64,000 nt of DNA from Raillietiella orientalis (lineage: Eukaryota), in the NCBI GenBank assembly GCA_036172245.1, contig JAYWIR010000054.1:682001-746000 (forward strand), read 5' to 3'. Positions 6,471 to 63,525 of the stretch are shown here, piece by piece. Under the pieces are notes generated by a model, which saw only the letters and a program-made list of their open reading frames with translations, made no database searches and was not told the origin of the DNA. Every line of letters begins with the position of its first letter. Position 1 is the first letter of the stretch. Both the position numbers and the translations under genes were made by a program.

Positions 6471-6499
6471 GAAAGAGACATCGAGCGCGCGTTTTCTCT

Positions 6500-6682
6500 T
6501 TGGTAGCGCAAGGTGCGGCTGCGGGACTGAGGTCTCTTTGCGCGCGTGGCACCACCAGGAGTCACAGGTTCCGATCCCGCCCGGGGAAAGATTGACGCCG
6601 AGAGCGGAGGGTGCGTCGTGGCTTTCGAGATCTCCCAGCAAGATGACGCTGGCTGGTTCATTCGGGTACGGCGCTGGTAGAC
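6500..6682 (+). mobile_element. tRNA-derived SINE-like unit
   Basis: B-box-like GGTTCCGATCC at 6567-6577, upstream TGGTAGCG..GGCTGCGG, and body GTGCGTCGTGG…AAGATGACGCTGG shared with five other copies. Confidence 0.7.
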
Positions 6683-7381
6683 ACCTGGTCACACCGAAGC
6701 GTTTATTTGTAAAAACAAACCAACACGTCTGTGGCAGGACGTTTGATCCTGTCATGTTACGTATAACTGCAAGGAGGAACCTGCCGGGAACTGGTCCGCA
6801 GGCCAACGGAGTTCACCTCGGCAGCACGAGGGAAAGAGAGACAAACCAAAAAAATATTTAAAAAAACAAAAAATATACAGTCAAAAAATTGGGGGGTCGG
6901 TAAGGTATCACTGTGTGCTGAAGGGCGTCCTCTGCATCCTTGTAAGAATGCCGGCAAGTTCCTGTTTCAAGACTCCCAGATGGAACCATCTTGACGTTGT
7001 CCTCATGAAGAGGACAACAGAATAGATAACTTCCCTGTGTTCTGACCTCCTCTGGCGTTGCTCCATGCAGCCACGGTCCCGCCGCGCGGGCAGCAAAGTG
7101 CTGCTAGGGATGCGGCTGGCATGAGGGCGTCCCGCACAAAAAGAAGTCCCACGACGTCCCTGGGGTTGCCGCCGGGGGTTCCAATGGTCGCGGCAAAGCA
7201 CCCCACAGGGATCAAAGGGGAGCAGAGTTCACTAAGAGGTGCGGGAGGGATTCGCGCTCCCCTCACCTTGCACAATTAGGGTTCACCCCCTCCTCCCGTG
7301 TCCAATGATGCCAGAGGGCGTTGCACGAAAGGCTCCAGTGCAGCAGCAGCATCAACGCCGACTCCTGTCAATTAAAAGAGA
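6683..7381 (-). mobile_element. Family A LINE 3' fragment with diverged TSD-like flanks
   Basis: GNPRDVVGLLFVRDAL..LAALCC, a structured 3' UTR and the terminal motif. On the minus strand it is flanked by GTCAACCAGTGTCGCACCC and GTCTACCAGCGCCGTACCC. Confidence 0.85.
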
Positions 7382-7399
7382 GGGTGCGACACTGGTTGA

Positions 7400-8020
7400 C
7401 ATCTGGTCACGTCGGGGCGTTTATTTCTAAACCTACATGTCTGTAGCAGGACGTTTGATCCTGCTACGTTACTTATGAATACGAAAAGGGGTCTGCAGGG
7501 ATCTGGCACGCAAGCCAGCGGGGTTCTCTTCGGCAGCACGAGGGAAGGGAAGACAAACAAAAAGAGAAAAACGAACCAAAAAAACTTCAGTCAAAAAGGA
7601 TGGAGGGAGGGGGGGGAGGGTTCGGGAAGGGATCACTGTGTGTTGAAGGGCGCCCGCTGCATCCTTGTAAGGATGCCGGCAAGTTCCTATTTTATGGTTC
7701 CCAGATGGGGCCATCTTGATGCTGTCCTCATGTAGAGGAAAGCAATATGGATGGCGTCCCTGTTCTGGCCTCTGGCGTTGTTCCATGACGCCACGATCCC
7801 GAGTAGGCAGCCCAGTGCTGCTAGGGATGAGGCCGGCGAGAGGGCGTCTTTCAGGAAGAGGCGCTTTAAAACGTTTCTAGTGCTGATGCCGGGGGTTCCA
7901 AGGGCGGTGACCAAGCATCCCCAAAGGGGCCGGAGGGCAACACGCTATCAGGAGGTGCGGGAAGGACTCCTGCTCCTCGCACCATGCACAGTTTGGGTTC
8001 ACACACCCCCTTGTTCCCGG
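7400..8020 (-). mobile_element. Family A LINE 3' fragment, in tandem with the 6683-7381 copy
   Basis: LKRLFLKDAL..LAALGCLLGIVASW, the same 3' UTR, and the terminal motif at ~7400-7426. Confidence 0.85.
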
Positions 8021-11000: not shown

Positions 11001-11036
11001 TGTTTATTAATAAACGCCCCGGCGTCACCGGGTGAC
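8021..11036 (+). mobile_element. 5'-truncated non-LTR retrotransposon, L1/Tx1-like (family A): RT, C-terminal CCHC zinc knuckle and 3' UTR; frameshifted
   Basis: ORF 7984..9234 has KAPGEDGLPAEFF, NWRPITIVNTDAK, DLHKAFDCV and RGIRQGDSLSPLLF. AYADDL follows in a shifted frame at ~9224-9241, then KYLGVPL (ORF 9322..9618). ORF 9347..10819 has LCAPRRDGG and CAVC-x6-HLLVDC. At least three frameshifts. A U-rich 3' UTR ends in AATAAACGCCCCGGCGTCACCGGGTG. Confidence 0.92.
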
Positions 11037-11044
11037 AACTCCCA

Positions 11045-11240
11045 GGCGTTTTTCTTTTTTTGTTTTGTTTTCTTCTGTTTTTCCCGCCCCTGCACCAGTG
11101 AAGAGGACCTTACCGGCCTGCGGGTCGTTAAGGACAAGTGCCCCAAGACAAAAATCATGACGACACAAGAAGACTTTATTATGAAATTTTTCCTTGTAAA
11201 AATTTTAATAATAAAAGCCCCGGCTCACCCGGGTAAAAAA
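11045..11240 (+). mobile_element. Additional family A-type 3' UTR fragment
   Basis: U-rich tract, a degenerate CCGGCCTGCG hairpin, and AATAAAAGCCCCGGCTCACCCGGGT followed by an A-run. Confidence 0.65.
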
Positions 11241-11930
11241 CCCCGCTGACTGGCCGGAACTCGAAGTTGACCCTCCGGGATCCTTCCAGGAATCAAGGAG
11301 TTGGTTCCCTCCGATTGTGCAAATGGAGCATCCTATCCCTAGAGGGGGCAACCCTCGAGGGGGAGACTTGCGCTTGGAGCTGGTCAGCACCTCTTCGGAT
11401 TGTGTCAAGAAGCTCACTGTTCCCTTCGGTGAGCGACCCTCCTAGGAAATGGGGAAGCGTCTCTTCGAGGTCCTTTTCAGAGGGGGAACAAGGAGCAGTT
11501 TTCTTGCGGATTCCTTTCGGAGACAACCAGAGCAAGGATTTCCTTCGGTGTTCCCTCCCAGGAGTGGGAGGAACGGATTCCTTTCTCTGGATCTCTCCTG
11601 GATTCATAGGGCGGTCCCCTGCTGGGGCACCTCCAACTTGAAGAGTTACTGCAGACACTCTCGTATGGCGTGGACAGCATTAAAGAGCTTCGTGAGCCCC
11701 GGATGATTGGTTCTCAAGTACTTAACGAATCCATTCCAGGGACTTTCTGGTCCGGCAACAGCAATTTCCATCATCCCCTTGCCGACGCGACACTTTTGGG
11801 TAGCGTCGCGACTGCGTCGTGCCGCGATGTGTGTAGGCGAGAACACCCCATAGGGTGATCCACTACACGGGATGAGGTCCCCATACCGCGCTGCTTCCAC
11901 CTCAGGCGAAAGGCCGAGTAGCAATCAGTA
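11241..11930 (-). mobile_element. Family B 3' block
   Basis: WNGFVKYL..LTKLFNAVHAIR and the conserved CTCCTTGATTCCTGGAAGGATCCCGG (LLDSWKDPG). Confidence 0.75.
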
Positions 11931-13479: not shown

Positions 13480-14132
13480 CTTGCTGGTTCATCCTAAGGT
13501 CGCTACTGGCCTTAGGATGATGGAAATCCTTTCTTTTCTGTCTTCGCAGTTCTTGGACACGGTTCCACGCCACCCGAAGGTGGATAATTCTTCAAGATAG
13601 GGGGTACCCCGGGAGAGTCCGCCCTATGAATCCAGGAAGGAGTCGGAGTCCGTTCCTCTCACGCCTGGGGAGGGATCCCCGGAAATGGAGATTACCTCCA
13701 CCTTGGTTGTCTGTGAAAGGGAATCTCGAGGGGTATCTCCTTCCTTATTCTCTCCGGGGGATCCCGGAGGGACGCTCCATTTTTTCTTCTCTGAAGGGAA
13801 CCCGGAAAGGATCTGATCCTGGAATTTCTTCTCCAGAGGGATCCCTCGCAATGGATCCGCTCCTGTTTACTCCTCTGAAGAGAACCCCGAAGGGACGTTT
13901 CCGAATTTCGGAAGGGCGCTGCTTTCCCCGAAGGTATCGGCTCGCTTCTCTGCACTCTCTGGAGAGATGGTGGCGACACACCTTCTCCATCAGTACGACT
14001 TGGAGGGTCGCCCCGGGATGGGGGGTTCGCTCCTTCACAACCGGAGGGAGTTCCCACTCCGTGATTCCTGGAAGGACCCGGGGATCGACTCCCATTTGTC
14101 CCGGCCCTCATCGGGGCATCCGGTTTCAACTG
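13480..14132 (+). mobile_element. Family B 3' block
   Basis: CCCTATGAATCCAGGAAGG…GTGATTCCTGGAAGGACCCGG…GGGGCATCCGGTTTC. Confidence 0.75.
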
Positions 14133-14300
14133 CTACCAGTGCCGCACTTGGATGAATGTAAGCCGACCAGCGTCATCTTACGGGGTGAATTCGAAACCAA
14201 CGACGCACTGCGTCGATTCAGTTCGGAGTATTCGCACCCACGACGCTTGGTGGTGCCACGCGCAGAGACCACCGCAACCACACGGCCTGCGACGCGGGCT
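14133..14300 (-). mobile_element. tRNA-derived SINE-like unit
   Basis: Minus-strand GTGGTTGCGGTGGTCTCTGCGCGTGGCACCACCAAGCGTCGTGGGTGCGAATAC plus the shared body. Confidence 0.7.
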
Positions 14301-15369
14301 GTGGCTCTCAAAGTTTCACCAAATAGGACAGCGCATGAAGCCCAAGGGAATGTGGTAAGGAAGAGGTATTTTTTGATTTTACATACTGTTAATTTAATTG
14401 TTAAAGAATGGTTAATTTTAGTAAGGGTCGTGGGTTTATGAGTGGAATGTAGTATGAAGGGAATGTTAATGGATAAAAAAAGTTTAGATGTGTAGATAGA
14501 ATTTTATGCTGTGGTAATGTTCAATTATAGACTTATTTTGGGAATAAGTTTGATTATTACGTATTGTTTGTTTTAATATGGATTAGATGAATTTTGCTGC
14601 AAGAGACAAGAAAGCTCTTCATTCATCCTCTGCGAAATTCGAGAAGTTTGGTGATTGCAGATGGGAAGTGCTGCGAAATTCGTCAATCGAAAAGTTCCTC
14701 CAGTCGCTTGTTTCTAAGTGTGAAATGTCTCACAGGCAGTTCATTCCCTCCTTCTCTGCGGTTAACTGGTGCTTCGTGGCATGGTGCTTACTAAATGTCG
14801 TGACATACAGGTTTCTTTAAGACGCTCCTGAACAATCCTTGCAACCACTGTTTGCCTGTCAAGCTGAAGAAGCCATCAGTAGCAGTCGAGGTATCTATTC
14901 GGCAACTCACGTGCTTGCGCAAGGAGCCAGCTGCGGAAAAGACAACCTTTCTTGCAAGTAAATGGAGCAAAGAGCAATTGGGAAAGATTTACCGCAAAAG
15001 CTGGTGGTTTATGAGGCCGGATGCCTGCCTGGAAGGTGGGAACTGTCGTCCGATGTGTTGCATGCACAGTTTCAGTCAGAATGCAAAAGTGTGCTGCCAG
15101 TCGTTTGCAGAGATCTTCCAAATGCAACGTTCACAACAAGCGCCTCAAACGTTGATGGTCCAGCGCCAAGTTGCGTTCCAGAGACTAAAATGGCCGTTGT
15201 TGATTAGCATAAAAGGAGCATCTTCTTATCAAGCAGCATTTTCTGAACATGTAAATCAACGAGTGTCAATGGTTTGCTGTGACCGTCGATGGCTAGAGCA
15301 ATTCCGAGTCCGTGTGGGTGAGCCTCCTCTCCCGGTTGAGCGGAGGCGTTTGATGACCTCGGAGAAAAA

Positions 15370-28100: not shown

Positions 28101-30719
28101 ATCCAACCGAGCACGAAGAGGCAGAACCGCAGGTGACCCCCAATATTCAGGAGGTGGCTGGACGCATCTGGGTCTTTCTCGATGCATGAACTCACCTGAA
28201 GGCGAAATCCTCGAGTGTTATTTAAGATCTACCGTTCGCCAATGACCGGAGCGCTTGATGCTCGGCGAACTCACTGTGTATCCTCCTCATGGGCAGCCTT
28301 GTCGTTCCGAGAGTCTTGGTCACTAAGCAGAACTCCTTTGCCACATCGCCTTCGCAAGCTTGGTCTTCTGGGTCGACGGATCGTTGCAGGCACTTTATCC
28401 GGAGAACACCTCTGCTTCGCGGACCACCGATTTATCCATGAGGCATCCCTCAACTTTGCGCCTGTGTGTGTGTGTGGGGAGGGGCATTATCCCAAACAGG
28501 ATTAAGAAGAGGAGGCGATCGTACGGGGGTCAGGCACGCATTTGATCTGTTAGCGGCATTAGAATAGGCGAGGCACAAGAAGGGAAACAGGAGTCGAGGA
28601 CCTGACTCTCCACGGAGACCGCCGCAGTTTCTTTTTCCTGGGATGCTGGAATTCGACGGGTAAAGAAGCAGAGAGCAGGCAGGCGACTTCCAAAAAAGTA
28701 ACATGGAAACACCCGATGTTGGAAGCAGCGGGCCGGGTCACCACCCTCAATGGAAGAAGAATCGCAGTCTCGTCTCTTCGAGGACGGGTTGAACAGGCAG
28801 GCTGAGGAGAAAGTCGAAACGCGCCTTCCCTCTTCTTCCCTGATCGATCTGTTCATGTCCGCTCTTGCAACGCCATTCTCTCCGAGAAGTTCGCAGGATT
28901 TCTTTTCCTCCCTCATTCTTTAAAGGACAGTTCCTCAGGAAGATCAAGGAACCCCACTCAAAGAAATGGTCTGCAGCCCCGTGGCACTCGAAAACGAGCG
29001 TGAGATCCTTCTCCAACTCCGTCGTCCTGGATCCGAAGGTGGGATTTTCCGGCACCCCGCCTTCATCCAGAAGGACTCGCCTTGAACCTGGCCTCCAAGA
29101 TCTGGACGTTCTGATAGACTGACGAGCGAAACCTTCGGATTGAAGCAAACAAAGGAAGGGAAAGGGAGAACTCTCGGTGGTTTCGTGCATACGATGCGAC
29201 GCGAAAGTGTCAATGACGAAAGAACGAAGGCTCTGAGATGGGAAGAGAATCAGAACAAGTGAGAGACCCTTGGGCGCTCGAATTTCTTCAAGGAGGTCGC
29301 GGTGTTTACCACTTGGAGTAGGCAGCGCGAAGGAACTCCTCCTGGAGGGTGATGTGGAAGTTGGAGGGCTGGCTTCGGGAGACAGAGATGCCCGGTAGAT
29401 CAGGGCAATTGGTAGTTCCGAGGTCGGTCCCACGTTCCGAAGCTGGGAAATTTTTCAGGTGGGAGTTGCGGGACTCCGCGCTTTGAGCCTCAGGCGGAGG
29501 GATCGCTGCGGTTCGGAGCCTCCTCATGAAAGGTGGAGGGAAGCGCGTCGGTGGTGAGTCCCGCCGCACGCCCTACCCCGGCGGAAGGCGGCGTGGCCTT
29601 TGGGAGCCAGCATGACGCCAAAGCTCTAGCGGACTCTGTCGTGCAATGAATGAGGGGAAGAACTCCGTGCTCCCAGAGACCGAGCACGGTACAGACTCCC
29701 GTTCCCGGTGTTGGTGTTCTTCGCCGTTGTGCTTTGAGTAAGAGTCAGCAGGTGTCTGAGTGGAGCCCGACGGGAGCGCGCGAGAACGCTAGCTGTCGGG
29801 TGGGAGGGCGGCAGCGGGTGCGGAGGCAACGACTGGGATTTTTTCCCACAGCGCCCACTGCTGAGGAGGCTCCCAGAAGCCTCCGCACGCCCATCTGGGT
29901 CTCGCTGAACTCTGGATCGCTGCTGTTAGACGACGCGGCGATAAGAAGCGTACTGAAAACAGCGGTCCACCCGGGCGGTTGCGTGGCAACTCGGCGACGG
30001 CACAGCTGGCTTCCCACGGAGTGCTACTGGCAACTTCTCAAGGGAAACAGGAGCTTACGAGAGGCTCAAACCGGAATTTCGTAGCTGCGAAGGTCATCGC
30101 CCGTGGCAAGGCGCGTCCTTGTGCTTGGGGGAGCACTTGGTCTCACTCCTTGGTAGGGAGCTGAGTAGCTCCTGTGATGCTCTTTGCAACTATGGAATTG
30201 CAGCTCTGTGCGGTTCAGAGGTCAACTGGCTGCCTGTCCCCCCTCCCCCGGTCCCCCGGAGGAACTCACTTCTCCCAGTCGGGCAGACCAGAAAGAAGTT
30301 CAAGAGACCCGGCAGTGCGCTACCTTGGTTCAAATCGAAGAAGGGATGGTCGCTCTAGAAGACATCGCGTGGCGGAGTCTAGATGTTCGCAGCGTGATAC
30401 TAGTGTCCCTTCCGACCAGCATCCCGCGCCATCTTCCGAGGTTGGCATCGCCCGAATGCCGAGCCTGTCGTCCTGAGGATGGTGTGACCGAGTGCAGCTG
30501 ATCAACTGTGCTTGTGCTATCCCTCCCCTGAGAGGATCCCTCGATGTCAAAGGTTCCTGAAGGAGTGGCCGCCATGCGTTTCTGTTCCATAAACCGCGCC
30601 TTCCGAGGTACCCGAAGACAATGCCTGTCGGCGGCCGTGTGGTACCGGGCATTGCGAATTCGAATCCCAGCCAGGAAGGGACGGACGCCGACGTGGGATT
30701 TGCTGTTGCAGGTTTCGAG

Positions 30720-31110
30720 TTTCCTGCAGGATGGCGCTGGGGCCTCCAGACTTGTGCAGGCTGGAGATCGGGTGCCACTCCTTCACCAGCTGGAATCGGG
30801 AGTACACTCTCCGGGACCCTTCCAAAAATCTCTTTGCGCCGGTTCCCTTCGGAGTTTCCCAGCTGTGCCAATGGAGCCGACTCGAGCGGGAGGCCCTCCA
30901 CCGTATGCCCTGGAGCTGGTTTATCCCCTTCGGAGGGTGCCTCTCCAGAGTGCGTCAAGGAGCACACTACTCCCTCCGGGGTTCTCTTCAGAGGAGCAAA
31001 CAAGGAGCAGTTCCCTTGAGGGTTCACTCCGGAGACAACCAGGTTCCTTTCGCAATTTCCTGCCAAGCGTAAGAGAATGGGACTCTTCCCTTCAGGACTT
31101 TCCGGATCAA
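30720..31110 (-). mobile_element. Family B 3' block (partial)
   Basis: Minus-strand TTCTCTTACGCTTGG, TGGTTGTCTCCG, CTCCTCTGAAGAGAACCCC and GGAAGGGTCCCGGAGAG are shared with other copies. Confidence 0.65.
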
Positions 31111-31113
31111 GTT

Positions 31114-31620
31114 TTTCACCTGGTCACTCCGGGGCGTTTATTTCATAAAAAATGAACTAGTTGGGAACATGCTGGTTCCCAGCCGACTATAAGAAGAAAC
31201 GAAGGGGAGGGTTTGCCGGCACGTAGGCCGGGAAAACGGAAAGTCCGCAACGGGGGAGGGACAAGCGGAGAACAAAAGCAAACAAAATGGGTGAGAAGAA
31301 CTTTGGTTTCGCTCCCTCTACACAAGGATGAAAACAAACAGCACTGGGAAAGTTTCCTGAATAAAGTGGGATGACCCTTACGGAGTTGCCCCCAACTGAG
31401 TTATACGCACCTTTGAATGGCACCGACGGTCTTTAAAGAGCTTTGAGAGCCACCATGTGGAGGAAAGGTCGAGCTCCTATGATGCACCTCCCAAGGATGC
31501 GAACGATTCTGCAGGAATTGGGGCGAACCCTAAAAAGAAGACGGCCATCAGCGGGTAAGAGGAGTGTAAGTGGGGGAGCAGCCACGAGTTCCTCTCCTTC
31601 GCTTTTGCTCTTCCCTAAGC
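31114..31620 (-). mobile_element. Family A-type LINE 3' end
   Basis: Terminal AAATAAACGCCCCGGAGTGACCAGGTG plus an A-run on the minus strand, preceded by a CCGGC-CTACGT-GCCGG hairpin and a U-rich tract. The 5' extent is uncertain. Confidence 0.65.
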
Positions 31621-51149: not shown

Positions 51150-52267
51150 CTTGTGAGAGGAACGGAGAGAGGGTGGAGCGCTCTGCAGCTCCGAGCAGGG
51201 GAGGCTGTGGGATCGATGGGAGGAGCGCGTCTGCGGACAAGTCGCTGGGCGGCATCCGAGGTGGCCGCTGGCGCAAGTGGAGTTTCCGTTGGCTGGCGGA
51301 GACCGGGTCGGCAAGGCATTCTGGAGGGTCACAGGTGGCGAGGAACTGATCGGCGGGAGGCAGAATGCCCGTGGCCATCTTTCCAAGTTTCTAGGGAAGG
51401 AGTTACCCTGGTTGGGAGGTGCTTTCGTGCTGGGAAAAGAAGCTTTTACCTGCGAGAGCGGATGACAGGTGGCTGCCTGGCCTCCTCTTTTGGATTCAGG
51501 AGAGGCCTTTTTTCGAGGAGCACCTTCATGAAGGGGGTGCTGGGAATCTGCTTCATGGCCTGTTCCTCAAGAGCCCCGTGAATCTTTTCCCGGATGCTCA
51601 TGGAAAAGAATTTTAAAGGCGGGTCAATGTTGGCGTATGGTGAGAGCGATCGCTGAGACTTTTCGACTTCCATGCTGTTCGAAAGAGGGAAGGAGAGATG
51701 CCATCTCTTCCAGACGATGGAATGCTCTGGTAAGCTCTTCCAGAGCGCTCCGGTTCTCAGTGCACTCTAGAGCAGTGCATCACTTCCCAGGTCGTTTCAC
51801 TGGAATGGAGAAGTAGGGCGTCATGTTCCTGGCTTCCCAATCGTCTTGGAAGTTTCTTACATTTCCCTGCAGCCGCGAAGCTAATCAGTAGTTCAGGGAT
51901 CCGTGAGAAGCTTTCTACGCTCTCACGCCAGGGCGTTTTCCAGAGAACGACTAAGTTGGAAACTCGGTTTCCAAGGGAATCACAAAAGGAGTTCAAGGGG
52001 AGGGTCCACCGACAGTCAGGTCGTCCACTCTAAAAGTCCAGAACGGGTGGGAGTGGACAATAAATAAATAAATAAAGATAGGACGGGATAATTCGGCCGT
52101 TCCCTTGTCCTAGAACCGGCTCTAGGTGCCGTAGATCCGTGTCCTGACTTGTTCTTCCAGGTGGGGTCACGTAGCGGCGGTCCTCATGTAGGCCGCTGCT
52201 GCTCGGGTGAGCCCTCCCTTCTCTGAGCCTGCCTCTCAAAGAGGTCTCCAAGAAGACCGCAGCCACC

Positions 52268-52435
52268 GCGTTGGCAGACATGTGGCTGCGGTCTCCGCTC
52301 GTGGGCGCACCAAGTGCTGTGGGTTCGAATCCCCTCCCAGGGTAGGACCGACACCGAGAATGGGGAGTGAGCCGTGGACTTTGAGCTTCCCCCGCATGAT
52401 GACGCCCGTTGGCCCGTAAGTTTCCGGTGCCACCC
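52268..52435 (+). mobile_element. tRNA-derived SINE-like unit, solo copy with no LINE end attached
   Basis: GTGGCTGCGGTCTCCGC…GTGGGTTCGAATCCC (canonical B box at ~52322-52332) plus the shared body ATGACGCCCGTTGGCCC. Confidence 0.75.
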
Positions 52436-54229
52436 TAGAGGAAGCGTCATCGTGGTGAAGCCAGGCTGCTCCTCCATGGTTCGCGAGGAACGCCGCGGTC
52501 CAGAAGCGAGTGTTGAAGAAGGTTCGATCGCCTCGCACCTGGAAACAGTTCGGGGAAGCAGCTTCCCCGGAAACGAGGTTCCAACACTGATTGCACCGGA
52601 ATCAGAGCGAGATGAAGGTAGAATGGAACACTGCTGAGCAGCTTAGCAACCAGTTTTCTGCTCCTTCTCGGATGAATGCGAATGGTTGTTTGGATCATCA
52701 TGAGTAATTTTGAATAAATGGTTTCTTCCTACCAGAGAAAACTGGTCGGGAAGGCCGACCAGCTGCCTTTGTGCGATTGCTGTGAATAGTGCCTTTGAAT
52801 AAATAGTGCCTTTGGTGAGAGGAAAACTGTACTTTCCAAGAAATAGTGCAACGATCGGTACAAAAGAGCCACATGTCCATGGGTGAATTCCCGCGCATCT
52901 CAAGAACACCTGCTTTGCTTGTTCAATTGATACCCCAGTGGATACGTTTGATGGTTTCAGAGTCTTCGCCTGAGGCTTTGGGGAAGTTTGCTGAGCTGCC
53001 AACGACAGCCCTGAAGACCCTTGTCTTCAGGGCGTCTGCGTGGTGGACAGGCAGGGCATTTTAGTTACATTTTTCTCCTGTCAGGACGTTGAAGGGCCGC
53101 AAAGGGGTTGGTTCCTCTCTGAACTCGTCATTTCGGACCACCATCAGGAAGATACGTTTCGTCTGCAAAGCATCTTTTGTACTTCCTGTCGAATAACAAC
53201 GCATGCAGCTTCTTTGAGTTTCACAGTATCGATGGAAGGTCATCACGAAGTTCGGTTCACTCCAGTGACCGTGAGCCACTCTTATCGCGCATTACTGTGT
53301 CGTTATTGACTCATTGTTTCATCGTAACCGCGAGATAAGGTGCTCACTGCTGTTGATAGGGTGCTGCCAACTGCTTGTTGTTTGGTGTATTATGGGTCGT
53401 CGTGCACTTGGAGTGAAACGGAAGGCAAAGGAAATGAGCGGTTTCCTTTGGTCAGGGAAGCCCAGCTTTCATTGTCCACTCGGGGCTATTGGTGGAACTC
53501 GCAGCTGCTTGCGCGGAAGAGTCTTCATGATCATCCATCAGCAAGCAGGCGGCCATGAAGACAAACACGGGCTGGTGTTACATGAAGAGTCGTATGTTTC
53601 AGCTTCGTCTCGCTAGGGTCCTGGCTGGCGTCCCAACCCGAGAGCGACCGAGAGGGCACCGTCCGCTCCCCCTCCCCTCCCATGCGTTCTCCATTCACCA
53701 TCCCCTGGGTCACCGCTAGGAGTCGATCCTTACTTCATCTTGCCTCCTCCAGATCCTCATCAGGAACAGATCGCGCGCCCTCTGCCGCTGCTCTCCCGCC
53801 GCGGCGGAGCACCGGATCTGGCAGCATCAGCCCTGGGTCTGCTCCGGGAGTGCGCTGGTCAGAGACTGCGAACCCTCATTCTTCTTGCGTGGCCTCCTCC
53901 GTCCGGGCTGCCGGACATCCCCCTCGACGAGTCGTCTTCCCTCGTTCCCGATGCGATGAGTGGGGGTGTGGCGGAGGGGCCACTTCCTCAAGCACCACCT
54001 GCGCGTGCGGTGAGTGGCTTCCCTGGGGGGTGCCTCACGCGCTAGCATCCCACTGAGCCGCGCCGCGCGAACCAACCAGTGATGAGGAAGAGCCTGGGAC
54101 TGTTTTCCTTTTCCGCCGCCGAAGGAAAAGTTCCCGGAAGCGCTATGCTGTCTCTCTGAGGAAGTGACTTTCGGTTCCGGTGCTCCTAAAGTATTGGAGA
54201 CGGGAGTTTTCGCTCTTTCTTCTGGGGAC

Positions 54230-54775
54230 CCAGGATGGCGATATCCTGAAAGACCTGGAAGGCCGCAGAACGTAGCACTGTTCCACGGCCACTCGAGGGT
54301 GCGTGTTAACTCTTCAAGTTAGGGAGTACCCCGGGAGGGGAACTAACCCATGAATACAGGAAGGGCTCTCGAGAAAGGTGTCTGTTCTTCTCACGCTTGG
54401 GAGGGAACCTCGAAGAGAACTTCCCATCCTGGTTGTCACCAAAGGGAACCACTGCCTTATTATCTCCGGAGGGACCCCCCTGAAAAGATCATCTCCCTGT
54501 TTCCTCCTTGGAAGACGATCACGAAGGGACTCTCCCCAATTTCTCTGGAAGTCGCTCCCCGAAGGGAGCAGAGCACACTTCTTGACACTCTGGAGAGCTA
54601 TCAACCCACCGACCCCATGGTGCGAGATAGAGGATGCAACCCCCGGTGGGAGAGGAAACGACTTTATTTGTACAAAATTAGGGAACCACCCAAAGAGCTC
54701 CTCGATTTCCGAAAGGACCCCGGACGGTCAACTTTCAGTCCCGGCCAGTCAACCGGGGCAACCAGTTTCCGCCTT
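54230..54775 (+). mobile_element. Family B 3' block
   Basis: CTCTTCAAGTTAGGG…CCCATGAATACAGGAAGG…CCGGCCAGTCAACCGGGGCAACCAGTTTCCG. Confidence 0.78.
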
Positions 54776-54802
54776 CCACCAGTGGCACTATTGGTGCACC
54801 AC

Positions 54803-55043
54803 CAACAGACAGTGATCCCTTCCCAAACTCCCTCCATTTTTTCTACTGTATGTTTTTGTTTAATTTTTTTTTCTCTTTGTTTGTCTCCCCTTCCCCTGTG
54901 CTGCCGAGGCGAACCCCACTGGCCTGCGTGTCAGCTCCCGGCAGGTTCCTCCTCGTTGTTACAAGTAACGTGGCGGGATCAAACGTCCTGCCACAGTGTT
55001 GTTGGTTTATTTTATAAATAAACGTCCCGGTGTGGTCGGGTGT
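54803..55043 (+). mobile_element. Family A 3' UTR-only insertion
   Basis: Starts near CAGTGATCCCT (compare the ORF2 stop context GTGATCCCT at 10816). It has the full structured UTR and ends AATAAACGTCCCGGTGTGGTCGGGTG. Confidence 0.85.
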
Positions 55044-55205
55044 CAACCAGTGTCGCTCCCGAAGCCCGTGAGCCAACCAACGTCATCTTACGGGGGAACT
55101 CGAAACCCAAGACGCACCCATTTTTCTAGCTTCGATCCTTTACGAAACCGCGACGCCTGGTGGTGACATGCTCGGAGACCACAGCCACGCGGCCGCCAAT
55201 ATGGG
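55044..55205 (-). mobile_element. tRNA-derived SINE-like unit
   Basis: Minus-strand GCGTGGCTGTGGTCTCCG…CACCACCAGGCGTCGCGGTTTCG plus the shared body. Confidence 0.7.
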
Positions 55206-55555
55206 TGAGCCCGGCAGTATGACGGTGGGCAACAAAGGTGAGGCATCTGCCGGACTGACCTCACTCTAAATGACCGAGCACAGAAGTGTGCCGAAGTCCA
55301 ATTTTGGCGCCTCACAAACGCCGATGACCAGCGCAAATGAGTGGGAACCCGGAAATCCCAGAATGAAGAGAAAAAATAGAAAACCATAAAAGCATCCGGG
55401 TCTACAGAGTCTTCACCATGTTGTGTATGTATTGTTAAATGCATTTCTTGAAGTCGAAGTTTGTGGAATCGCTTCATCCCATTTGGGGCACCCACTTCCC
55501 TTAGTCGGTAGTAGGTCTTCTTGATCGTCGATATTCTGCGCAATTCTGCTAGGTT

Positions 55556-56040
55556 GTCTGGGAACGCTTCTCTGCGGACCTCCCACTCCCGATGGGCAAC
55601 GGCAAGGAGGTCTGGAGCGTATCTTCGCGCGCTACTCGGCGTCTCCTGCAGCTTCCCTTGCAGCCCCTGTGCTGCCTTTGCGGGATGGTGGCGGCGAGGA
55701 GCCTTGACGAAAGGGTCAGTCGAACGATGAGGTCATCGGAACCGCCTGATTTTTCATTGAAAGGCGACAAGATGGCCACATCTCTGCCAACAAAAGGAGG
55801 AAGTTGCCAACATCCTCCAGAGGATGCCGAGGACGCCAGCAAGCAGTCTGCGATCTCCCCAACATTTTTTTTAAATTGAACTCTTGTGTTTCTTTTTCTG
55901 TCTGTGTTTACTCCTTCCCCCACTCCTCCTGTGCGGACCTCACGAGAAGCAGCGCCTCCCTTGCAGTTCCTACCCTTCTTAGTGGTGCTGTGAAACCAAC
56001 ACGAAGGAATACACTTGGATACCAAAGAAGACTGTTTTTT
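55556..56040 (+). mobile_element. LINE 3' fragment, close relative of the ~4050-4430 segment (inverted)
   Basis: ORF 55592..55879 is nearly identical to ORF 4111..4449. Confidence 0.85.
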
Positions 56041-56414
56041 TTGTAAAAATTCTTTCACAACAAATGCCCCTCCGGAGTGGAAGGTTGAAAACGAACCGTC
56101 CAATGCCTCTCTTTTTTTTTTTGGATTTTCAAGTAGAACAGTCAAGTCTTGGATCCTGGAGGTTCCTGATCATGACGCTGTGGTACTCTTTCCTTTCTTT
56201 CCCTCGTCACGACTTCAGAAAACCAGGAATCCTTCGTAGCTCCAGAAAGGCAGAAGGAGTTTTCGCCAGGTTTCCGCATGCTCCTAATGCGGGAGCGGTC
56301 GAGATCCAAAGTCCTTGAAGGGCACGGCGGCTTTGAGGATTTCGAAAAGAAGAAAAGAAAGCTATCTATTTCGAAAGCCAGCGGCTATGTCCTCAGCTCG
56401 AGTTCTGGGCATTC

Positions 56415-56565
56415 GTGCCAGAGTTGATGACGGTGTGGCTGTGGTCTCCGCACGTCGAGGGTTCGAATCCTCCCGTAAAGGATGGACTCCGAGAAATGGG
56501 GTGCGTCGTGGGTTTCAAGTTCTTCCTCAAGATGGCACTGGTTGGCCCATTCGAGTGCAGCACTC
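56415..56565 (+). mobile_element. tRNA-derived SINE-like unit
   Basis: GTGTGGCTGTGGTCTCCGC…GGTTCGAATCC (~56460-56470) plus the shared body. Confidence 0.75.
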
Positions 56566-56569
56566 ATGA

Positions 56570-57090
56570 AAACCGGAAACCGGATGCCCCCGTTGACCAG
56601 CCGGGATTCGAAGTTGAGCTTCCAAGGTCCTTCCAGGAATCAAGGAGTTTCGGAGTTCCCCCTGGGTTGCGGAAATGGATCGTCCATCCAGTACCATGGA
56701 GCTGATATATCCCCTCTCCTCCCCTCCCCCGGTGTCTGCCTCTCCAGAGTATGAGAGGCGCCTTTCAGAGAAACTGGGAAGCGTCCCTCGGTGTTCTCTT
56801 CAGAGGAGGAATGAGGAGAGGTTCCCTTGCTGGAAGTTCCGGAAACGTCTTCTTCCGGCTGGTCCCTTCGGAGAGAATGAGGAAGAGTTCCCCTCCGGAG
56901 TTCCCTCCCAAGAGTCAGAGGCACGGACTCCTTCCTCCGGAGCCCTTCCTGGATCCATAGATTGGTCCCTAAGGGGTTACCCCCTGCAGCTTGATGTGTC
57001 ACGCGCGCCCTCAGATGGTGTGGACAGCGTTCAGGAGCTTCGCGAGTCCTGTAAGGAGGCGAACGATTCTTCAGCACTTGGCGAATCAAA
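56570..57090 (-). mobile_element. Family B 3' block
   Basis: The same block on the minus strand, ending GGGGGCATCCGGTTTCCGG next to a tRNA-like unit. Confidence 0.78.
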
Positions 57091-58269
57091 GAAAAGGACA
57101 ACCCGCAAAAAAAATAAAATAAAAAATGGAAGGAAAGCAGCAAAAACGGGAAAATCCAGAATGAATTTCAATTCTCGGGACATCCATTTAAATTCAACCA
57201 GCCGTAGTCAGGAGCAATTCTGCGGTTCGCTCCCTGATGAAGTTTTGCACACTCGCGAAGAACGTGACTGTTTGGCTCCTCATGAAGCTTCGTTCCCAAG
57301 GAGATCAGTATGTTGACAGAGGAGCCACAGGGACTCTGGAGCGGTGTTATTTGCCAGGGACTTTTTCTCTCGGTTTTCATTCAGGAGTAAGCGTGTTGAT
57401 TTATTGCTCGTTTGCGCGTTCTAGAATTCATTTCGTCTTCCTGCGTTGGCTTGAAGTCCGCACAGGGAGAGACCCCATTTGTTTGCTTCTCGGTTTCGAA
57501 TACCCGGAGGCTCTTCTCAATTTCCTTCGAACGGAGCGGAGTCTGAACCAAAAAGCAAACAAATGGGACCACTCCCTGTGGGGACTTCAAGCAAGCACAG
57601 GAGAACGAAATGAATTCCAGAAGATGCGAAACCTGGAGGGGTGAAGGTGGCAGTCTATCTGCAAGGGACCAAATGATCCCGGGCCGCTCCTTGGTTCCCT
57701 CCACCTATCGGGGCAACTGAGACAGAAAACTGAAAGGGAAGCAAAGAAACAAATGGTCCAAGAGGTGACGTTGAGACGAACATCGAGGGAATTTCGATGC
57801 CCCGGATTTCTCTGGATGTTTCCAGGACGGATCCCTTCCAACCAGGCAGGGACGAAGGCAAGCCGCGAAGTAAGCGGTTTCGCATGCCGATGTTTTCTCT
57901 GCACCTGCGGGAAATGTCGCAGGAATCGCATCCGACATCACTTGATCATCTGCTTCAGCAAAAGAAAGCTGACACGATATGTGCCCTTTATCGAACATCT
58001 GCATTGCGTGTTCCGGAAGTTGGATTTTCGTTGCAAGGAGGGGCGCTTAGAATGCAGCGGCGTCTAAAAGTTTCCACGAGTCCTTCTGGAAAGTTCGAGC
58101 GAGGTCCGAGTCCGCAGAGAGAGAACATTCCGCTGGCAGGCGGTCAGCAACACGATCACCTGCCGTAGGATGAAACCGGAAGCCACGTCAAGGAACAGGC
58201 AACGTGGATGCGCCTTCGGGATGCACCACGACGAGAAAATTCCAGTCTGATCGAAACCCTGGTTGTCGA

Positions 58270-58730
58270 TGCTGCTCCTCGTCACCCGAGGGTGCGTGCT
58301 GGCTCTTCAAGTTAGGGGGTAACTCCAGAGGACCACCCCATGAATCCAGAAAGATTCCAGAGGAAGGAGTTCTTTCCACTGATGCTTGGAGGGAACCCCG
58401 AAGAAAACCTTTTCCTTATTCTCTCCAGAGGCTTCCTCCGGAAAGAATCCGCTCCCAGAATTTCTTCCCCGGAGGGAACTCTCAAGGGAACCGCTCCTCG
58501 TTTCTTTCTCTGGAGAGAACCACGAAGGGACGCTGCCAAAGTTCTGTAAAGGGCGCTCACCGAAGAGAGCAGTGCACTTCTTGGAACCCTGGGGAGGTGT
58601 CAACCAGTTCCCTGGTAGGCGAATGGCTCCCTTTGCACAATGACGGGGAACCCCGAAGAAACCGACTCCTTGATTCCTGGAAGGATCCCGGAGAGTCGAC
58701 TTCCGATCTCTGCCAGTCAACGGGGAGGAT
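58270..58730 (+). mobile_element. Family B 3' block
   Basis: CTCTTCAAGTTAGGGG…CTCCTTGATTCCTGGAAGGATCCCGGAG…GCCAGTCAACGGGG. Confidence 0.78.
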
Positions 58731-58829
58731 TCAAGAGCCAAGCGCAGAACAGGTGCAATATTTACTGTACGCGTGCAACCACAACTGCACGAAGATTCTG
58801 GAATATCTCATGAAGAGTGAGTAAGCAAG

Positions 58830-59787
58830 CAGAACCTTTCTCACCGTCGCACTACCCTCCCTTAGGAAACACATGGACAGCAGCCTTACGACTAGATGGG
58901 AGGTCGCTGTGGAAATCTCCGAAAGGAGGAAGGGACCGAGCGAGTGGACGACGGGCCAGCTCACCGACACTGCGATCCCGATTGCTCGACCTCATGAACT
59001 TTTGCGCTGGGACGTGCTATTGGGTATTCCAGAGGAAGAACTGCAGTGGCCCCCGGCGCTCATGAACACCCGCCCCCTCCTCTTAAAGTGGCAGGAGTCG
59101 GCATTGATGCTGCTAGACTGGGGTCCCCCGTGCAATGCCCGCCGGCATCATTAAACACGGGAGTGGGGTGGGGTGTGTGTGGACCCGAACTGTGCAAGGT
59201 GCGCGGAGCGCGAATCCCTCCAGCACCTCCTAGCTGACTGTTCTGCCCTCCGACCCCTTTGAGTACGCTTTGCCGCGACCCTTGGAGCCCTAGGGGCAAG
59301 GCCAGAGACATTTTAAAGCGCCTCTTCCTGCGCGATACCTTCATGCCGACCGCATGCCCAGGAGCACTTTGCTGCCCGCGCGGCGGGACCGTGGCTGCAT
59401 GGAGCAACGCCAGGGGAGTACAGAACGACAGAGACGCTATCTATTTTGCTGTCTTCTTCATGAGGATTACGTCAAGATCTGGCCCCATCTTGGAACCACA
59501 AAACAGGAACTTGCGGACTTCCTTACAAGAATGAAGAGGACGCCCTCTAGCACACAGAGATCCCTTCTCAGACCCCCCTTTTTTTTGACTGTATGTTTTT
59601 TGTTTTATTTTTTTTTCTTTTTGTCTGTCTCCCCTTCCCATGTGCTGCCGAAACGAACCCTCTGGCCTGCGTGCCGGATCCCGGCAGGTTCCTTTTCGTA
59701 TCCATAATTAACGTGGTAGGATGAAAGGTCCTGCGACAGATGTGTGTGTTAATTTTTTTATAAATAAACTCCCTGGAGTGACCGGGT
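58830..59787 (+). mobile_element. Family A LINE 3' fragment
   Basis: ORF 58873..59154 reads RWEV..WTTGQLTD..LLRWDVLLGIPEEELQWPP..WQESALMLLDWGPPCNARRHH. The structured UTR and terminal motif (~59763-59787) follow. Confidence 0.88.
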
Positions 59788-59975
59788 GTCAATCAGTGCC
59801 CCCGATGAGTACAGACGGACCAGCATCGTCCTGTGTGTTTGTGTGTGTGTGGGATTGGGACTGGAAACCCACGACACAGCTATTGCTAGGCGTGCATCCT
59901 TTCCCGGGAGGGATTCGAACTCGCTACTCTGGGTACAACGCACGGAGACGGCAGCCACGCTACTACCAACGATGG
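59788..59975 (-). mobile_element. tRNA-derived SINE-like unit with an internal (TG)n expansion
   Basis: Minus-strand TGGTAGTAGCGTGGCTGCCGTCTCCG…GAGTTCGAATCCC. Confidence 0.72.
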
Positions 59976-60297
59976 CCACAATTCTCTCTTCCTCTCAGGA
60001 ACGTAGCGCCAGTCCTTACGGTCACCAGGGTGGACCGCTAGGATCCCAATTTTCCAAGGGCGACGGCGTTCTGAAAGAGACGAAAGATTTCATAACGCAC
60101 ACGAACCACCTCGGGCAAGATGATGGTGTGTTGCAACGCCCAGTGAAGTCGGGACATTTACTGGACCGTCCAAAGGAGGAAGTATTTGTCTCGACATCAG
60201 GAACTATTCGTGACATTTCCATTGCCTGCGTTGCAATTCTCCTCCCGGCAGAACGACACTAGTTGGCCCACAGGCCTCGGGTGTGACGCTGGTGGTG

Positions 60298-61900
60298 GCC
60301 GGAAACCGGATGTCCCTATTGATAGGCTGGGATTCTCCAGGGGGGTTCCAGGGGTTCTTCCAGGAATCAAGGAGTCGATTCACTTCAGGGTTCCCCTCGG
60401 AGAAGAGCGACCCTCCATTGAGTACCATGGAGCCGGTTTTTACCTCTCCGGGGTTTCAGGAAGCGCGCTGCTTCCTTCGAGAAGCGCTCTCCACAAGAAT
60501 TTGGCAGCGTCCCTTCGTGGTCCTCTTTAGAGGAGGAAGAATAAGGAGCTGCTCCCTTGCGGCTTTCCTCCGGAGAAAGAAATCCAGAAAAGGATCCTTT
60601 CCGAGGGTTCCTTCAGAGAGAATAAGGAAGAAGTTCCCTTCGGGGTTCCCTACCAAGCGTGAGAGGATCGACTCCTTCCTCCGTATCCTTCTTGAATTCA
60701 TAGGGCGGTCCCTACGGGGTTACCCCCGTAACTTGACGAGTCACGCACGCCCTCGGGCGGTGCGGACAGCATCCAAGAGCTCCGTGAGCTCCTAGGCGAA
60801 CGTTTCTAAGTACTTAGCGAGCCCATTCCTGAATCCTTGAGGGAAGATGACGTCACAGCTGCTGGCCAGTGAGGTTCGCCTTGGGAGTGTCATTTCCGTG
60901 TCTGTCCACTTCTCAAGAGGGAAAGCAGGTTTCAGAGGTCGTGCGGATCTGGGGTTGTGCAAAGTTGAGCACTCACCAGCAGCAGGTTTGGTTGCAGAAT
61001 TCTGAAATCTGGAGGCGAACCTCGTGCAGAAGAAATGTCGAACCGCTCCAGCACTCTTCTCGCCTTTATCCTCAGTGTTTTCCCGAGATATGCGATCCAG
61101 GACACTGGCTAGTAAGCGGACGGAAGCACTTAAGAGGAGCACGAGCCAGTCTTCACGAGAGGCAACCCACGTCCCAGGAGAATAATGGAAGGCTCAGCAT
61201 TCTTGCCCGACGTCTTCCATAAAATAAAACAAAATGGGGCGGAAGATCCTTGAACAAGATGGTAGAATCCAAATCCCCAGTCCATTTCGGTATTGTGGCT
61301 CTGTACACAAGGGCTGTGCTTATAACCCGGCAACTTTCATAGGGCCTCGTACGTTCCTGGAGTTCCTTTCTCACTTTTCCATTTGTTTTCCTTCGGAAAG
61401 ACAGATTAGCAGAACAGTTATGTGGAGCTGGAGATCAGAGGCTCCAGTTGCGGTACCCAAGGTCGTTAGGGTTCAGAAAGAGAACTGATATCGTTTCGGT
61501 TACAGCAAGCACGCGTGGGTTGCAAGCAGCTGGAAGTACCGCGTGGGCTTGAGAAGATGATTTATCGGATCAGGCCACCTCAAGATGATCCGCTCTGTCC
61601 AATAAGGCTCCTGGCTTTATAAAAATCGGAGACAGCTTCCTTATGAGGTTTCCATGGCTACGTTCAAGAAGCTTCTTTGCGGAACCAAGTGGGCGGGATT
61701 TCACGAAAGCGTTGAATCCATTCACCAATATTAAGCGGAGACTCGCTCCGGCTCTTGGAACCTCAGGACCCCGCGCTTCGGACTTGCTGAGACGTTTCTT
61801 CACCAGAGGCGGGCTGTGATTTCACATCCGGGTGTTCTGGGGCGTTTCTTCCTCTTGCAGGTATCGATGGAGCCAAAAGGCTAACCAATTCCAATTATTA
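60298..61900 (-). mobile_element. Family B LINE-like element, longest copy (decayed ORF2-like region plus ~500-bp 3' block)
   Basis: Minus-strand LCTEPQYRNGLGI (resembles the post-RT GGLG motif) and NGLAKYL..ELLDAVR, followed by the recurrent block containing CCTATGAATTCAAGAAGG…CTCCTTGATTCCTGGAAG…CATCCGGTTTCC. Confidence 0.6.
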
Positions 61901-63149: not shown

Positions 63150-63525
63150 CGTAGTGACAGCCCGCCGCCTGCTGGAGTCAGGTTCGCGACGAAGAGAGAC
63201 CATCAGTATGACAGCAGCAGTTTTCATGAAGACAGCAGCAAAGTGACCTCATCTGCCAGCAAAATTCGCCGGGAAATCGCAACCGACCAGAGCTGCTTGT
63301 AGAAATGAGGAACGTCTTTAACCAAAGACCTCTGTCCTCACCTTTGCGTCCTTTATTTATTCATTTATCGTCTCTTCCCTCCGTTCCCTACTTTTTGGAA
63401 GGCGGCTTGCATGCCGGTGGTTATCCCAGATGAACTTCCTTTTTTTCGTTTTTTGCTTTCGAGGAGTTCTTTTTCCCATCTTACTTGTAGTTCTTTAAAT
63501 GAACGACCCGGCGTCAACCGGGTGG
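63150..63525 (+). mobile_element. LINE 3' end related to the 5590-6470 copy
   Basis: GGAGTCAGGTTCGCGACGAAGAGA and TCTTTAACCAAA blocks are shared with ~6117-6270. It ends AATGAACGACCCGGCGTCAACCGGGTG. Confidence 0.7.

Follow-up and report, generated by a model that had tools for sequence, protein, structure and literature searches.

In a 64,000-nt stretch of eukaryotic DNA (the window) rich in old retroelement debris, with copies 65–80% identical to each other, the 3′ ends of four copies of one LINE subfamily (A1) adjoin the same nucleotide of a dispersed repeat of ~740 bases. These copies share their junction and orientation, differ in 5′ truncation, include two with target-site duplications and a tandem double insertion and, judged by divergence, are younger than the repeats that they entered. 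The best reading, to which a probability of a little under 60% is assigned, is that A1 represents a target-specific LINE lineage of L1/Tx1 type for which the dispersed repeat would be the landing site. All evidence for A1 targeting comes from this one 64-kb window, with four A1 copies in three host units. The original prediction had proposed that two LINE families, A and B, repeatedly end at one site of a tRNA-derived, SINE-like unit; its observation was partly confirmed and its interpretation partly supported. Use of the repeat as a landing site by family A was supported within the window for subfamily A1 (4/4 ends) but not for the sister subfamilies (0/8).

Eight copies (E1–E8) of the unit were found in the window, and the unit profile has 736 positions. 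The unit consists of a head of ~180–215 nt, which carries a T-arm/B-box-like motif, and a body of ~550 nt that continues it in constant register. Three copies are occupied by A1:

E4, 54273..54794, reverse strand: body ("family B"), restarting at unit-model position 159
E4, 54776–54789: left-hand copy of the target-site duplication
E4, 54799..55042, forward strand: A1 3′ fragment, 244 nt, LINE model 912–1160 (nhmmer with the LINE 3′ model; 3′ flank)
E4, 55043..55226, reverse strand: head, which stops exactly where the A1 3′ end lies (unit-model position 178)
E4, 55043–55056: right-hand copy of the target-site duplication
E5, 58261..58726, reverse strand: body, restarting at unit-model position 194
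E5, 58716..59788, forward strand: A1 3′ fragment, 1073 nt, LINE model 85–1160, including degraded ORF2 C-terminal coding sequence
E5, 59789..60001, reverse strand: head, which stops where the A1 3′ end lies (unit-model position 177)
E6, 6489..6683, forward strand: head, which stops where A1 copy 1 has its 3′ end (unit-model position 179)
E6, 6682..7387, reverse strand: A1 copy 1, 706 nt, LINE model 443–1160
E6, 7382..7399, forward strand: second target-site copy, 18 nt, between the tandem A1 copies
E6, 7400..8029, reverse strand: A1 copy 2, 630 nt, LINE model 519–1160
E6, 11241..11744, forward strand: body, unit model 195–735, with four LINE insertions between head and body

The heads thus end at model positions 178 (E4), 177 (E5) and 179 (E6), beside LINE ends at 55042, 59788 and 6682, and the fourth A1 end (7400) adjoins the 18-nt copy of the same target site. 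Each end (55042+, 59788+, 6682−, 7400−) is followed by TCA or TCT and then by ACCAGTG-like sequence, placing the insertion point, on the unit strand, after ...CACTGGT and ahead of GGAGG... (model position 178/179), with A1 antisense to the head at all four loci. The four family A junctions and their tail-to-tail arrangement were accordingly borne out, as was the order of B, A fragment and head at 54273–55226 and 58261–60001. The chance of such a coincidence is ~3e-4 per event by our arithmetic (~7 units × 5 nt × one strand / 2 × 64,000 positions), which makes three further coincidences by chance negligible and leaves targeting, or events that were not independent, as the real alternatives.

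Sequence around the inserts bears on this choice. In E4, unit positions 159–178 occur on both sides of the A1 insert with near-identical motifs of 13–14 nt, and both of the motifs predicted to bracket the A fragment, at 54776 and 55045, are present. The site copy between the tandem A1 copies of E6 measures 15–18 nt and is identical to the head-side copy at 12/15 positions; the 18-nt segment at 7382..7399 is the duplication that A1 copy 1 generated, and it served copy 2 as landing site. In E5, ~15 model positions are lost in a small target deletion, and the A1 5′ junction is without duplication. Duplications sought at the A junctions were thus found at E4 and E6 copy 1, with a small deletion instead at E5. 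The A1 5′ ends lie at LINE-model positions 912, 85, 443 and 519; the truncations vary as had been predicted, although the nhmmer lengths of 244 (E4), 1073 (E5), 706 and 630 nt (E6) replace earlier figures of ~240, 960, 700 and 620.

The bodies of the three occupied units are separated by K2P distances of 0.41–0.46 (95% bootstrap intervals 0.32–0.56) and their A1 inserts by 0.22–0.28 (intervals 0.16–0.36), a gap which stays when CpG sites are removed (0.37–0.42 versus 0.21–0.25). Provided that LINE and unit sequences accumulate substitutions at the same rate, this comparison indicates that the A1 inserts are younger than their hosts, which argues against a single amplified chimera. Under that explanation, A1 would have entered a master unit once, the chimera being amplified by retroposition or segmental duplication and later deletions giving the different lengths; junction and orientation would then be common to all A1 copies by definition. 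Also in keeping with it, the two loci inside the original finding are alike (an occupied minus-strand unit facing an unoccupied plus-strand unit), and no two A1 copies are closer than those of E4 and E5 (K2P 0.22). However, the host bodies are ~1.6 times more diverged than the inserts, the E4 and E5 heads differ by 0.46–0.56, and the tandem copies of E6 are no closer mutually (0.31) than to other A1 copies. E4 has a duplication and unit segment 179–193, both lacking in E5, but its A1 insert is 829 nt shorter than that of E5, and therefore neither is derivable from the other by a single deletion. The shared 5′ breakpoint and flank expected of such a chimera were not seen; the 5′ ends differ, and no similarity was found between the loci outside the elements. 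Non-independence thus appears already disfavoured within the window and is considered very unlikely. Varied 5′ truncation, the duplications, the tandem double insertion of E6 and the younger inserts instead suggest that A1 entered the unit in at least four separate events.

Specificity for the site appears to be a property of A1 rather than of the LINE family at large. A profile of the LINE 3′ end detects 12 ends in the window, 11 of which are its seeds and match by construction; one, at 63524, is new. The four ends at the repeat site probably represent one subfamily, as they have a common 3′ UTR (n=4) that includes a second hairpin absent from the other ends. At the A1 terminus a conserved CCGG-stem hairpin is followed by TG and, after it, TCA; sister subfamilies have a short A-tail in this place. 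Distances among A1 copies are K2P 0.22–0.31 with short tree branches (0.08–0.15); the tree does not separate A1 as a clade but joins its copies and three sister copies on long branches in one polytomy. The target site is used by 4/4 A1 ends versus 0/8 other related LINE ends (Fisher exact p = 1/495, our arithmetic), and these eight have different flanks and lie elsewhere in the window.

The same counts bear on the idea of a hot spot without element-encoded specificity, whether a fragile site, a loose preference of the LINE group or a region of piled-up surviving nested insertions. LINE ends are generally enriched in or beside units (~6/12 versus ~1 expected at 8% coverage, our arithmetic), and nesting bias therefore adds to the targeting signal. 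In addition, the end at 63524, which belongs to an unrelated subfamily and lies outside the units, is followed by GAAACCAGTAT, with the 7-mer AACCAGT in common with the A1 flank, and there is a recurrent breakpoint at unit positions 194/195. A hot spot would nevertheless have to be reconciled with a site that none of the eight non-A1 ends uses, with a non-A1 insertion within a unit (E8) that fell at ~590, and with four A1 hits in the same orientation at the same nucleotide within 2 nt; it is regarded as quite improbable.

Coding evidence for the class of family A comes from a sister copy, A2, behind which a further fragment lies in tandem:

A2, 8191..11034, forward strand: 5′-truncated LINE of a sister subfamily, retaining its 3′ end, the ORF2 C-terminus and a remnant of reverse transcriptase (RT), the only one in the window
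A3, 11048..11234, forward strand: short LINE 3′ fragment in tandem behind A2, its A-tail adjoining the E6 body at unit-model position 195

The RT region of A2 (8191–9138) matches Pfam RVT_1, and also human L1 ORF2p at E ~1e-39 versus ~1e-12 (2e-12) for R2; in tblastn with five LINE proteins, it is the only part of the window that matches. The window's only RT, that of A2 rather than A1, is thus L1-ORF2p-like; the window contains neither an A1 RT nor an endonuclease remnant. The best relatives of the A2 RT carry RVT_1, Exo_endo_phos and often zf-RVT, and because this set includes an APE endonuclease domain, family A is presumed to belong to the L1-like non-LTR retrotransposons of APE type.

The nature of the host repeat is apparent from the copies that A1 has not entered:

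E1, 13540..14332, reverse strand: uninterrupted head and body; target site intact and empty at 14132–14146
E2, 56382..57090, forward strand: uninterrupted head and body; degenerate target site at 56554–56568; A-rich after 57090
E3, 60241..60835, forward strand: body with the last 55–70 nt of the head only; site at 60280–60294 empty
E7, 52233..52449, forward strand: head only, resembling the unit as far as unit-model position 181
E8, 30640..31453, forward strand: missed by the original prediction; head from head-model position 76; head and body contiguous through the site
E8, 31117–31350, reverse strand: LINE of a different subfamily in the body, which it splits at unit-model 585–596 (~590)

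A heads-only model built without E3 matches that copy from position 160 of 229. The LINE in E8 has an A5 tail and a ~12–15-nt duplication, and therefore shows the style of target-primed reverse transcription and the duplication length typical of the LINE group. E7, which bears out the solo head predicted at ~52268, sits inside an antisense LINE fragment (52013–52235 and 52493–52601) that lacks 167 model positions there.

Since head and body are collinear and contiguous in E1, E2, E3 and E8, in the same register, the three junctions attributed to family B ends (~14133, ~56565 and ~60297) reflect internal continuity of the unit rather than LINE ends meeting a SINE; of the seven LINE/SINE junctions proposed, the four A ends stand. 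"Family B" would then be the body of the ~740-nt unit and not a second LINE. No Pfam match was found in five long ORFs across five B copies, queries from five LINE proteins and from the ORF2 pieces of the window itself gave no tblastn match in B, and no DNA homology was detected between B and the 1160 nt of the LINE 3′ model. The seven bodies cover nearly the same model range, with ends at 674–735, none longer and none much shorter; randomly 5′-truncated copies with a common 3′ end, as expected of a LINE, were not seen among them, and none of the seven is without a head. A copy of the site was found within 160 nt past the far end in 0/6 copies (best 7–9/15, p 0.46–1.0), and no head-like sequence was found there. 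A LINE identity for B was accordingly not supported, there being no RT or endonuclease coding signal, a unit length, and invariable continuation of the head.

The predicted tRNA origin of the head was not supported either: ARAGORN called 0 tRNA genes in the window, a window-wide Rfam search returned no tRNA at E<=1, nor did searches with two single heads at E<=10, and only a T-arm/B-box-like motif of GGGTTCGAATCCC type is visible. A MITE-like non-autonomous DNA transposon was also considered for the unit; no terminal inverted repeats pairing its termini were found in the three copies examined. Whole-unit target-site duplications above chance were absent from 7 copies, which are old (K2P 0.4–0.5), and an A-rich stretch follows the unit in E2 only. 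An alternative within the original prediction, in which head and B are one element parasitised by A, comes closer to these findings.

The full model of the original prediction is more elaborate, with a Pol III-type SINE head (~180–250 nt) serving as a landing pad both for LINE A1 and for a 550-nt non-autonomous B, tail-to-tail at one nucleotide, and with a related CCGG-stem hairpin at the B 3′ end. A head-only copy exists in E7, where similarity ends 2–3 nt from the A1 site, and this stop (within 3 nt), together with two other unit breakpoints at 194 and 195, leaves room for such a modular origin. The far ends of B vary (model 674–735) as the 5′ ends of retroposed copies would, and head and body distances disagree in some pairs (E1–E2: head 0.34, body 0.57, intervals non-overlapping). 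When B is read on the other strand, its end forms a CCGG-TTT-CCGG hairpin, a few nt ahead of ACCAGTG, that by eye resembles the CCCGG-loop-CCGGG end of the LINE; however, the LINE 3′-end profile matched no unit even at E<=1000, and the likeness is therefore without statistical support. Against separate mobility of B stand its constant association with the head (0/7 without), its failure ever to reach coding sequence, and far ends lacking both the site copy (0/6) and head-like sequence. Furthermore, E3 and E8 look like 5′-truncated copies of head plus body, a form that retroposition of the entire unit from the far end of B would predict. The model is therefore held to be unlikely, and the preferred reading remains that of A1 targeting a single unit.

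As a LINE at one site of another dispersed repeat, the A1 arrangement would resemble Tx1L in Tx1D, or Tx1-Mar in Mariner-N4_AMi. Tx1-type LINEs insert into other interspersed transposons at fixed positions, frequently in antisense and in tandem around a duplication; Mariner-N4_AMi of crocodilians is one such target, used by Tx1-Mar LINEs and SINEU (Kojima 2015, PMC4494074). As described there, Tx1-Mar matches A1 in being a LINE lineage whose insertions occupy a fixed position in a different interspersed repeat, in its one preferred position and direction opposite to the target, and in tandem insertions around a target-site duplication as in E6; a rival "hitch-hiking" explanation was likewise raised and tested with independently truncated copies (PMC4494074). 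The two also differ: the target of Tx1-Mar is a DNA transposon (PMC4494074), whereas that of A1 is a SINE-like unit without terminal inverted repeats; specificity of Tx1-Mar was established on hundreds of copies genome-wide (PMC4494074), versus four copies in one window for A1; and SINEU shares the Tx1-Mar target, whereas A1 is without a demonstrated SINE partner. Tx1L in Tx1D of Xenopus laevis is another Tx1-type example named there, as are the Tx1-clade elements Keno, Kibi and Koshi, specific for U2 snRNA genes and microsatellites (PMC4494074). Insertion of these last three is sequence-directed into multicopy targets, as proposed for A1, but the targets are RNA genes or simple repeats rather than an interspersed retroposon-like unit. 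Tx1L is a LINE of the L1 group with an APE-type endonuclease, as A1 is presumed to be, and its copies likewise sit at one site of a non-autonomous dispersed element. Its endonuclease specificity has reportedly been demonstrated biochemically, whereas that of A1 is putative, and Tx1D is a piggyBac-type DNA element, in contrast to the SINE-like target of A1. TRE3/TRE5 of Dictyostelium are steered by the Pol III machinery to genuine tRNA genes, near which their landing positions vary. They share with A1 a roughly constant distance from a B-box-type motif, but the A1 junction lies at the same nucleotide of a sequence motif that is duplicated, and the host head contains no recognisable tRNA gene. 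Two heads have indels between the B-box-like motif and the junction, and the junction sequence is still the same.

In the mechanism proposed for A1, target-primed reverse transcription would start after a sequence-directed nick of the bottom strand immediately ahead of ACCAGTG in LINE-strand orientation, and a second nick 11–15 nt downstream would produce the observed duplications. Specificity could derive from A1's own endonuclease or from pairing of its RNA with the target, and the same pattern may hold genome-wide. The A1 hits at one nucleotide of a ~740-base repeat look like site-specific targeting, for which there are precedents elsewhere.

Alignment of the loci revealed that the sequences originally described as a tRNA-derived SINE and as a second LINE family ("family B") are collinear and form parts of a single dispersed repeat unit of ~740 nt, in which a head (~180–215 nt) is followed by a body. 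The window was searched with a 736-position profile of this unit, and a heads-only model (229 positions) was built without copies E3 and E8.

Copies of the repeat unit in the window (unit positions are those of the 736-position profile).
E1, 14298-13540, uninterrupted unit, found with the 736-position profile
E2, 56417-57090, uninterrupted unit, found with the 736-position profile
E3, 60150-60835, uninterrupted unit, found with the 736-position profile
E8, 30642-31107 and 31351-31453, copy missing from the original prediction, found with the 736-position profile
E4, split unit, head stops at position 178 and body resumes at 159
E5, split unit, head stops at position 177 and body resumes at 194
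E6, split unit, head stops at position 179 and body resumes at 195
E7, head-only copy, stops at position 181

The junctions assigned to family B at ~14133, ~56565, and ~60297 lie in the interior of this one collinear unit, and the far ends of all seven bodies fall between unit positions 674 and 735. E3 and E8 start within the head (positions 160 and 76 of 229 in the heads-only model), which is the appearance expected of entire units that were retroposed with truncated 5′ ends; the mode of spread of the unit is one we infer. Terminal inverted repeats were not found in the unit, flanking duplications were not detectable for whole-unit or head-only copies, and there was no strand asymmetry of T-runs that could fix its Pol III sense. 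The head contains a GGGTTCGAATCCC-type motif, with a 5′ hairpin in two copies, and was not recognized as a tRNA in either window-wide or single-head searches; the proposed tRNA derivation is not supported. The best-conserved 20-mer of the unit, used in an exact-motif scan, had no match in genome contigs; in metagenome contigs, a single 30-nt match was found and is put down to chance. Just downstream of E2 lies a 77-nt inverted repeat (57419-57495/57546-57622; 84% complementary, 50-nt spacer).

The bodies (e.g., 13521-14441, 54347-55021, 56618-57316, and 58174-58824) are open for 130 to 300 codons in several frames on both strands, and they stay open despite ~30% divergence between copies. Long ORFs spanning five bodies had no Pfam match, LINE protein searches found no match in the body, and DNA homology between the body and the 3′ 1160 nt of the LINE was not found. 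Nothing here therefore shows family B to be a LINE, and its open frames appear to reflect base composition (a scarcity of stop-forming triplets) and not coding capacity.

The remaining family, A, is taken to belong to an L1-like LINE group. The sole reverse-transcriptase remnant in the window (8191-9138, + strand) has its closest relatives at 28 to 34% identity, in proteins that combine RVT_1 with an endonuclease domain of the APE type and in many cases also carry zf-RVT, and among solved structures it matched human L1 ORF2p (E ~1e-39) far better than R2 proteins (E ~1e-12). A search of the window with a 3′-end profile built from the last ~85 nt of family A recovered 12 LINE 3′ ends, 11 of which were seeds of the profile, the sole non-seed end being that at 63524. 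A terminal hairpin (AATAAACGCCCCGG..ACCGGGTG) is common to all 12. Eight run on into a short tail rich in A, beyond which the flanks are unrelated. At the other four (55042+, 59788+, 6682-, and 7400-), TCA or TCT comes next and then an ACCAGTG-like sequence; these four have in common a 3′ UTR that contains another conserved hairpin, and they are here termed subfamily A1. A1 copies differ among themselves by a K2P distance of 0.22 to 0.31 and have short branches in a tree that places them in an open polytomy with three long-branched sister copies. The shared site was used by 4/4 A1 ends and 0/8 other LINE ends (Fisher p = 0.002, our own arithmetic for this window), and the chance for a random insertion to fall, on the given strand, within this 5-nt window in any of ~7 units is ~3e-4, likewise by our own arithmetic.

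Other LINE copies in the window show further arrangements. A sister-subfamily fragment (31117-31350, − strand) lies inside the E8 body (30640-31453) at unit position ~590; its end at 31117 has an A5 tail and a 12- to 15-nt target-site duplication, and it is a clean reference for the normal insertion anatomy of this LINE group. The youngest LINE pair of the window (3896-4445, − strand, and 55559-56084, + strand; 86% identity over ~530 nt, rising to 95% in a core of 350 nt) forms a separate, well-supported subfamily whose 3′ ends lie in unrelated flanks. A 3′ end of another subfamily (63439-63524, + strand), outside any unit, is followed by GAAACCAGTAT, which has the 7-mer AACCAGT in common with the A1 landing site; this match could be a sign that the cleavage preference extends more widely in the LINE group.

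In E4, E5, and E6, the unit is split by an A1 fragment that is always antisense to it and whose 3′ terminus lies at unit position 178 ± 1. The A1 5′ ends lie at positions 912, 85, 443, and 519 of the 1160-nt LINE 3′ model, giving lengths of 244, 1073, 706, and 630 nt. Unit positions 159 to 178 flank the insert of E4 on both sides, with a 13- to 14-nt duplication formed by the motifs at 54776-54789 and 55043-55056. At the 5′ junction of E5, ~15 unit positions were lost instead of duplicated. E6 holds a tandem A1 pair with an 18-nt copy of the site between its members, identical to the head-side site at 12/15 positions; this copy is the duplication from one A1 element and, at the same time, the site where the other landed. 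Tandem SINEU-3 insertions of crocodilians have been described with the same arrangement (PMC4494074). The 5′ junction of the second A1 copy of E6 is masked by two LINE inserts that run the opposite way (8191-11034 and 11048-11234); past them, the body restarts at 195. A candidate continuation of the unit behind this copy (8046-8130) scored 31 against 26.4 ± 4.8 for shuffled sequence and was rejected as not significant. The two opposite inserts have tandem 3′ ends at 11034 and 11234, the latter adjoining the unit body at position 195, and their flanks ACAACTCCC and AAAAAACCCC resemble a degraded duplication, which suggests that 11034-11241 is a second double insertion at one spot.

The original prediction named amplification or segmental duplication of a single chimera as a finding that would undo it. 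No similarity was found between loci outside the elements. The occupied units E4, E5, and E6 differ from one another by K2P distances of 0.41 to 0.46 in their bodies and 0.32 to 0.46 in their heads, while their A1 inserts differ by only 0.22 to 0.28, and this gap remains when CpG sites are left out. A single deletion cannot turn E4 into E5 or the reverse. Between the tandem A1 copies of E6, K2P is 0.31, which is no lower than their distances to the remaining A1 copies. Together, these results argue against one amplified or duplicated chimera. Segmental duplication of two pairs, each of an occupied and an empty unit, was also considered and is rejected on the divergence figures. These comparisons fit a history in which A1 would have inserted repeatedly into units that had already diverged.

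The similarity of head-only copy E7 to the unit ends 2 to 3 nt from the A1 site, unit positions 194 and 195 are the places of two further, unrelated breakpoints, and unit segment 179-194 resembles the LINE terminal hairpin by eye. These features keep alive a landing-pad model that we consider unlikely. In it, a short Pol III-type SINE would be a dedicated, dispersed safe harbor where an autonomous A1 and a 550-nt nonautonomous B, both with related CCGG-stem 3′ hairpins, land tail-to-tail at the same nucleotide; the abundant head-plus-B unit would then itself be a product of targeted insertion. Tests on copies that are old and few do not support this model: a duplicated target site past the body far end was seen in 0/6 copies, no head-like sequence lies past the body far ends, none of the seven bodies lacks a head, and a LINE-tail profile matched in no unit, so that the hairpin likeness of segment 179-194 has no backing from that search. 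E7 itself sits inside an antisense LINE fragment (52013-52601) from which 167 model positions are missing at this point; a short head-only element was inserted there with target deletion, or else one deletion took the body together with adjacent LINE sequence.

The observation of LINEs ending at one site is partly confirmed and its interpretation partly supported: one candidate target-specific subfamily, A1, is retained, and the second, B, is not.

The surrounding DNA is eukaryotic (G+C 44–67% across the window) and crowded with old repeats of 65 to 80% mutual identity; window-wide searches found no tRNA genes or Rfam families. Two long inverted repeats stand apart from this range (25101-26116/47727-48742, 1016 nt, 100% identity; 24303-25101/50604-51402, 799 nt, 99% identity). 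They bracket ~21 to 25 kb, and their source is either an artifact of assembly or a segmental duplication in inverted orientation that happened very recently. The sole nonrepeat coding trace is an open frame (46186-47037, + strand) with a Glycos_transf_2 match, whose top relatives are polypeptide GalNAc-transferases; ACT/GCT-rich imperfect repeats lie just upstream (45317-45731). The style of the repeats prompts no more than a guess at a coccidian source such as Sarcocystis (PMC4337577). Degenerate G/T-rich arrays of TAGGT/TTAGGT-like words, with a strong GC skew that reaches 0.26, occupy 31900-32460 and 34497-35011.

LINEs with site specificity offer a natural model of how genes can be inserted at a chosen target, and they show how landing in other repeats limits harm to the host. 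A1 appears unlike TRE-type elements with Pol III-guided targeting: its junction goes with a sequence motif, which gets duplicated, and the junction sequence is unchanged in two heads that have indels between it and the B-box-like motif. It works like the target-specific LINEs of the L1/Tx1 group, although A1 is known here from one 64-kb window, and unlike their targets, its own is a SINE-like unit without inverted repeats. That L1/Tx1-group LINEs can select one constant position of a different interspersed element is established (PMC4494074). For annotation, the head and family B should be modeled as one unit, with the A1 pieces treated as insertions nested in it, since false chimeric families would otherwise enter repeat libraries. 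If the reading of A1 is true, a SINE-like retroposon would join RNA genes, microsatellites, and DNA transposons as a new target class, and the system would supply a candidate recognition sequence that is compact, because the tandem insertion in E6 suggests that ≤18 nt on one side is enough for A1 recognition.
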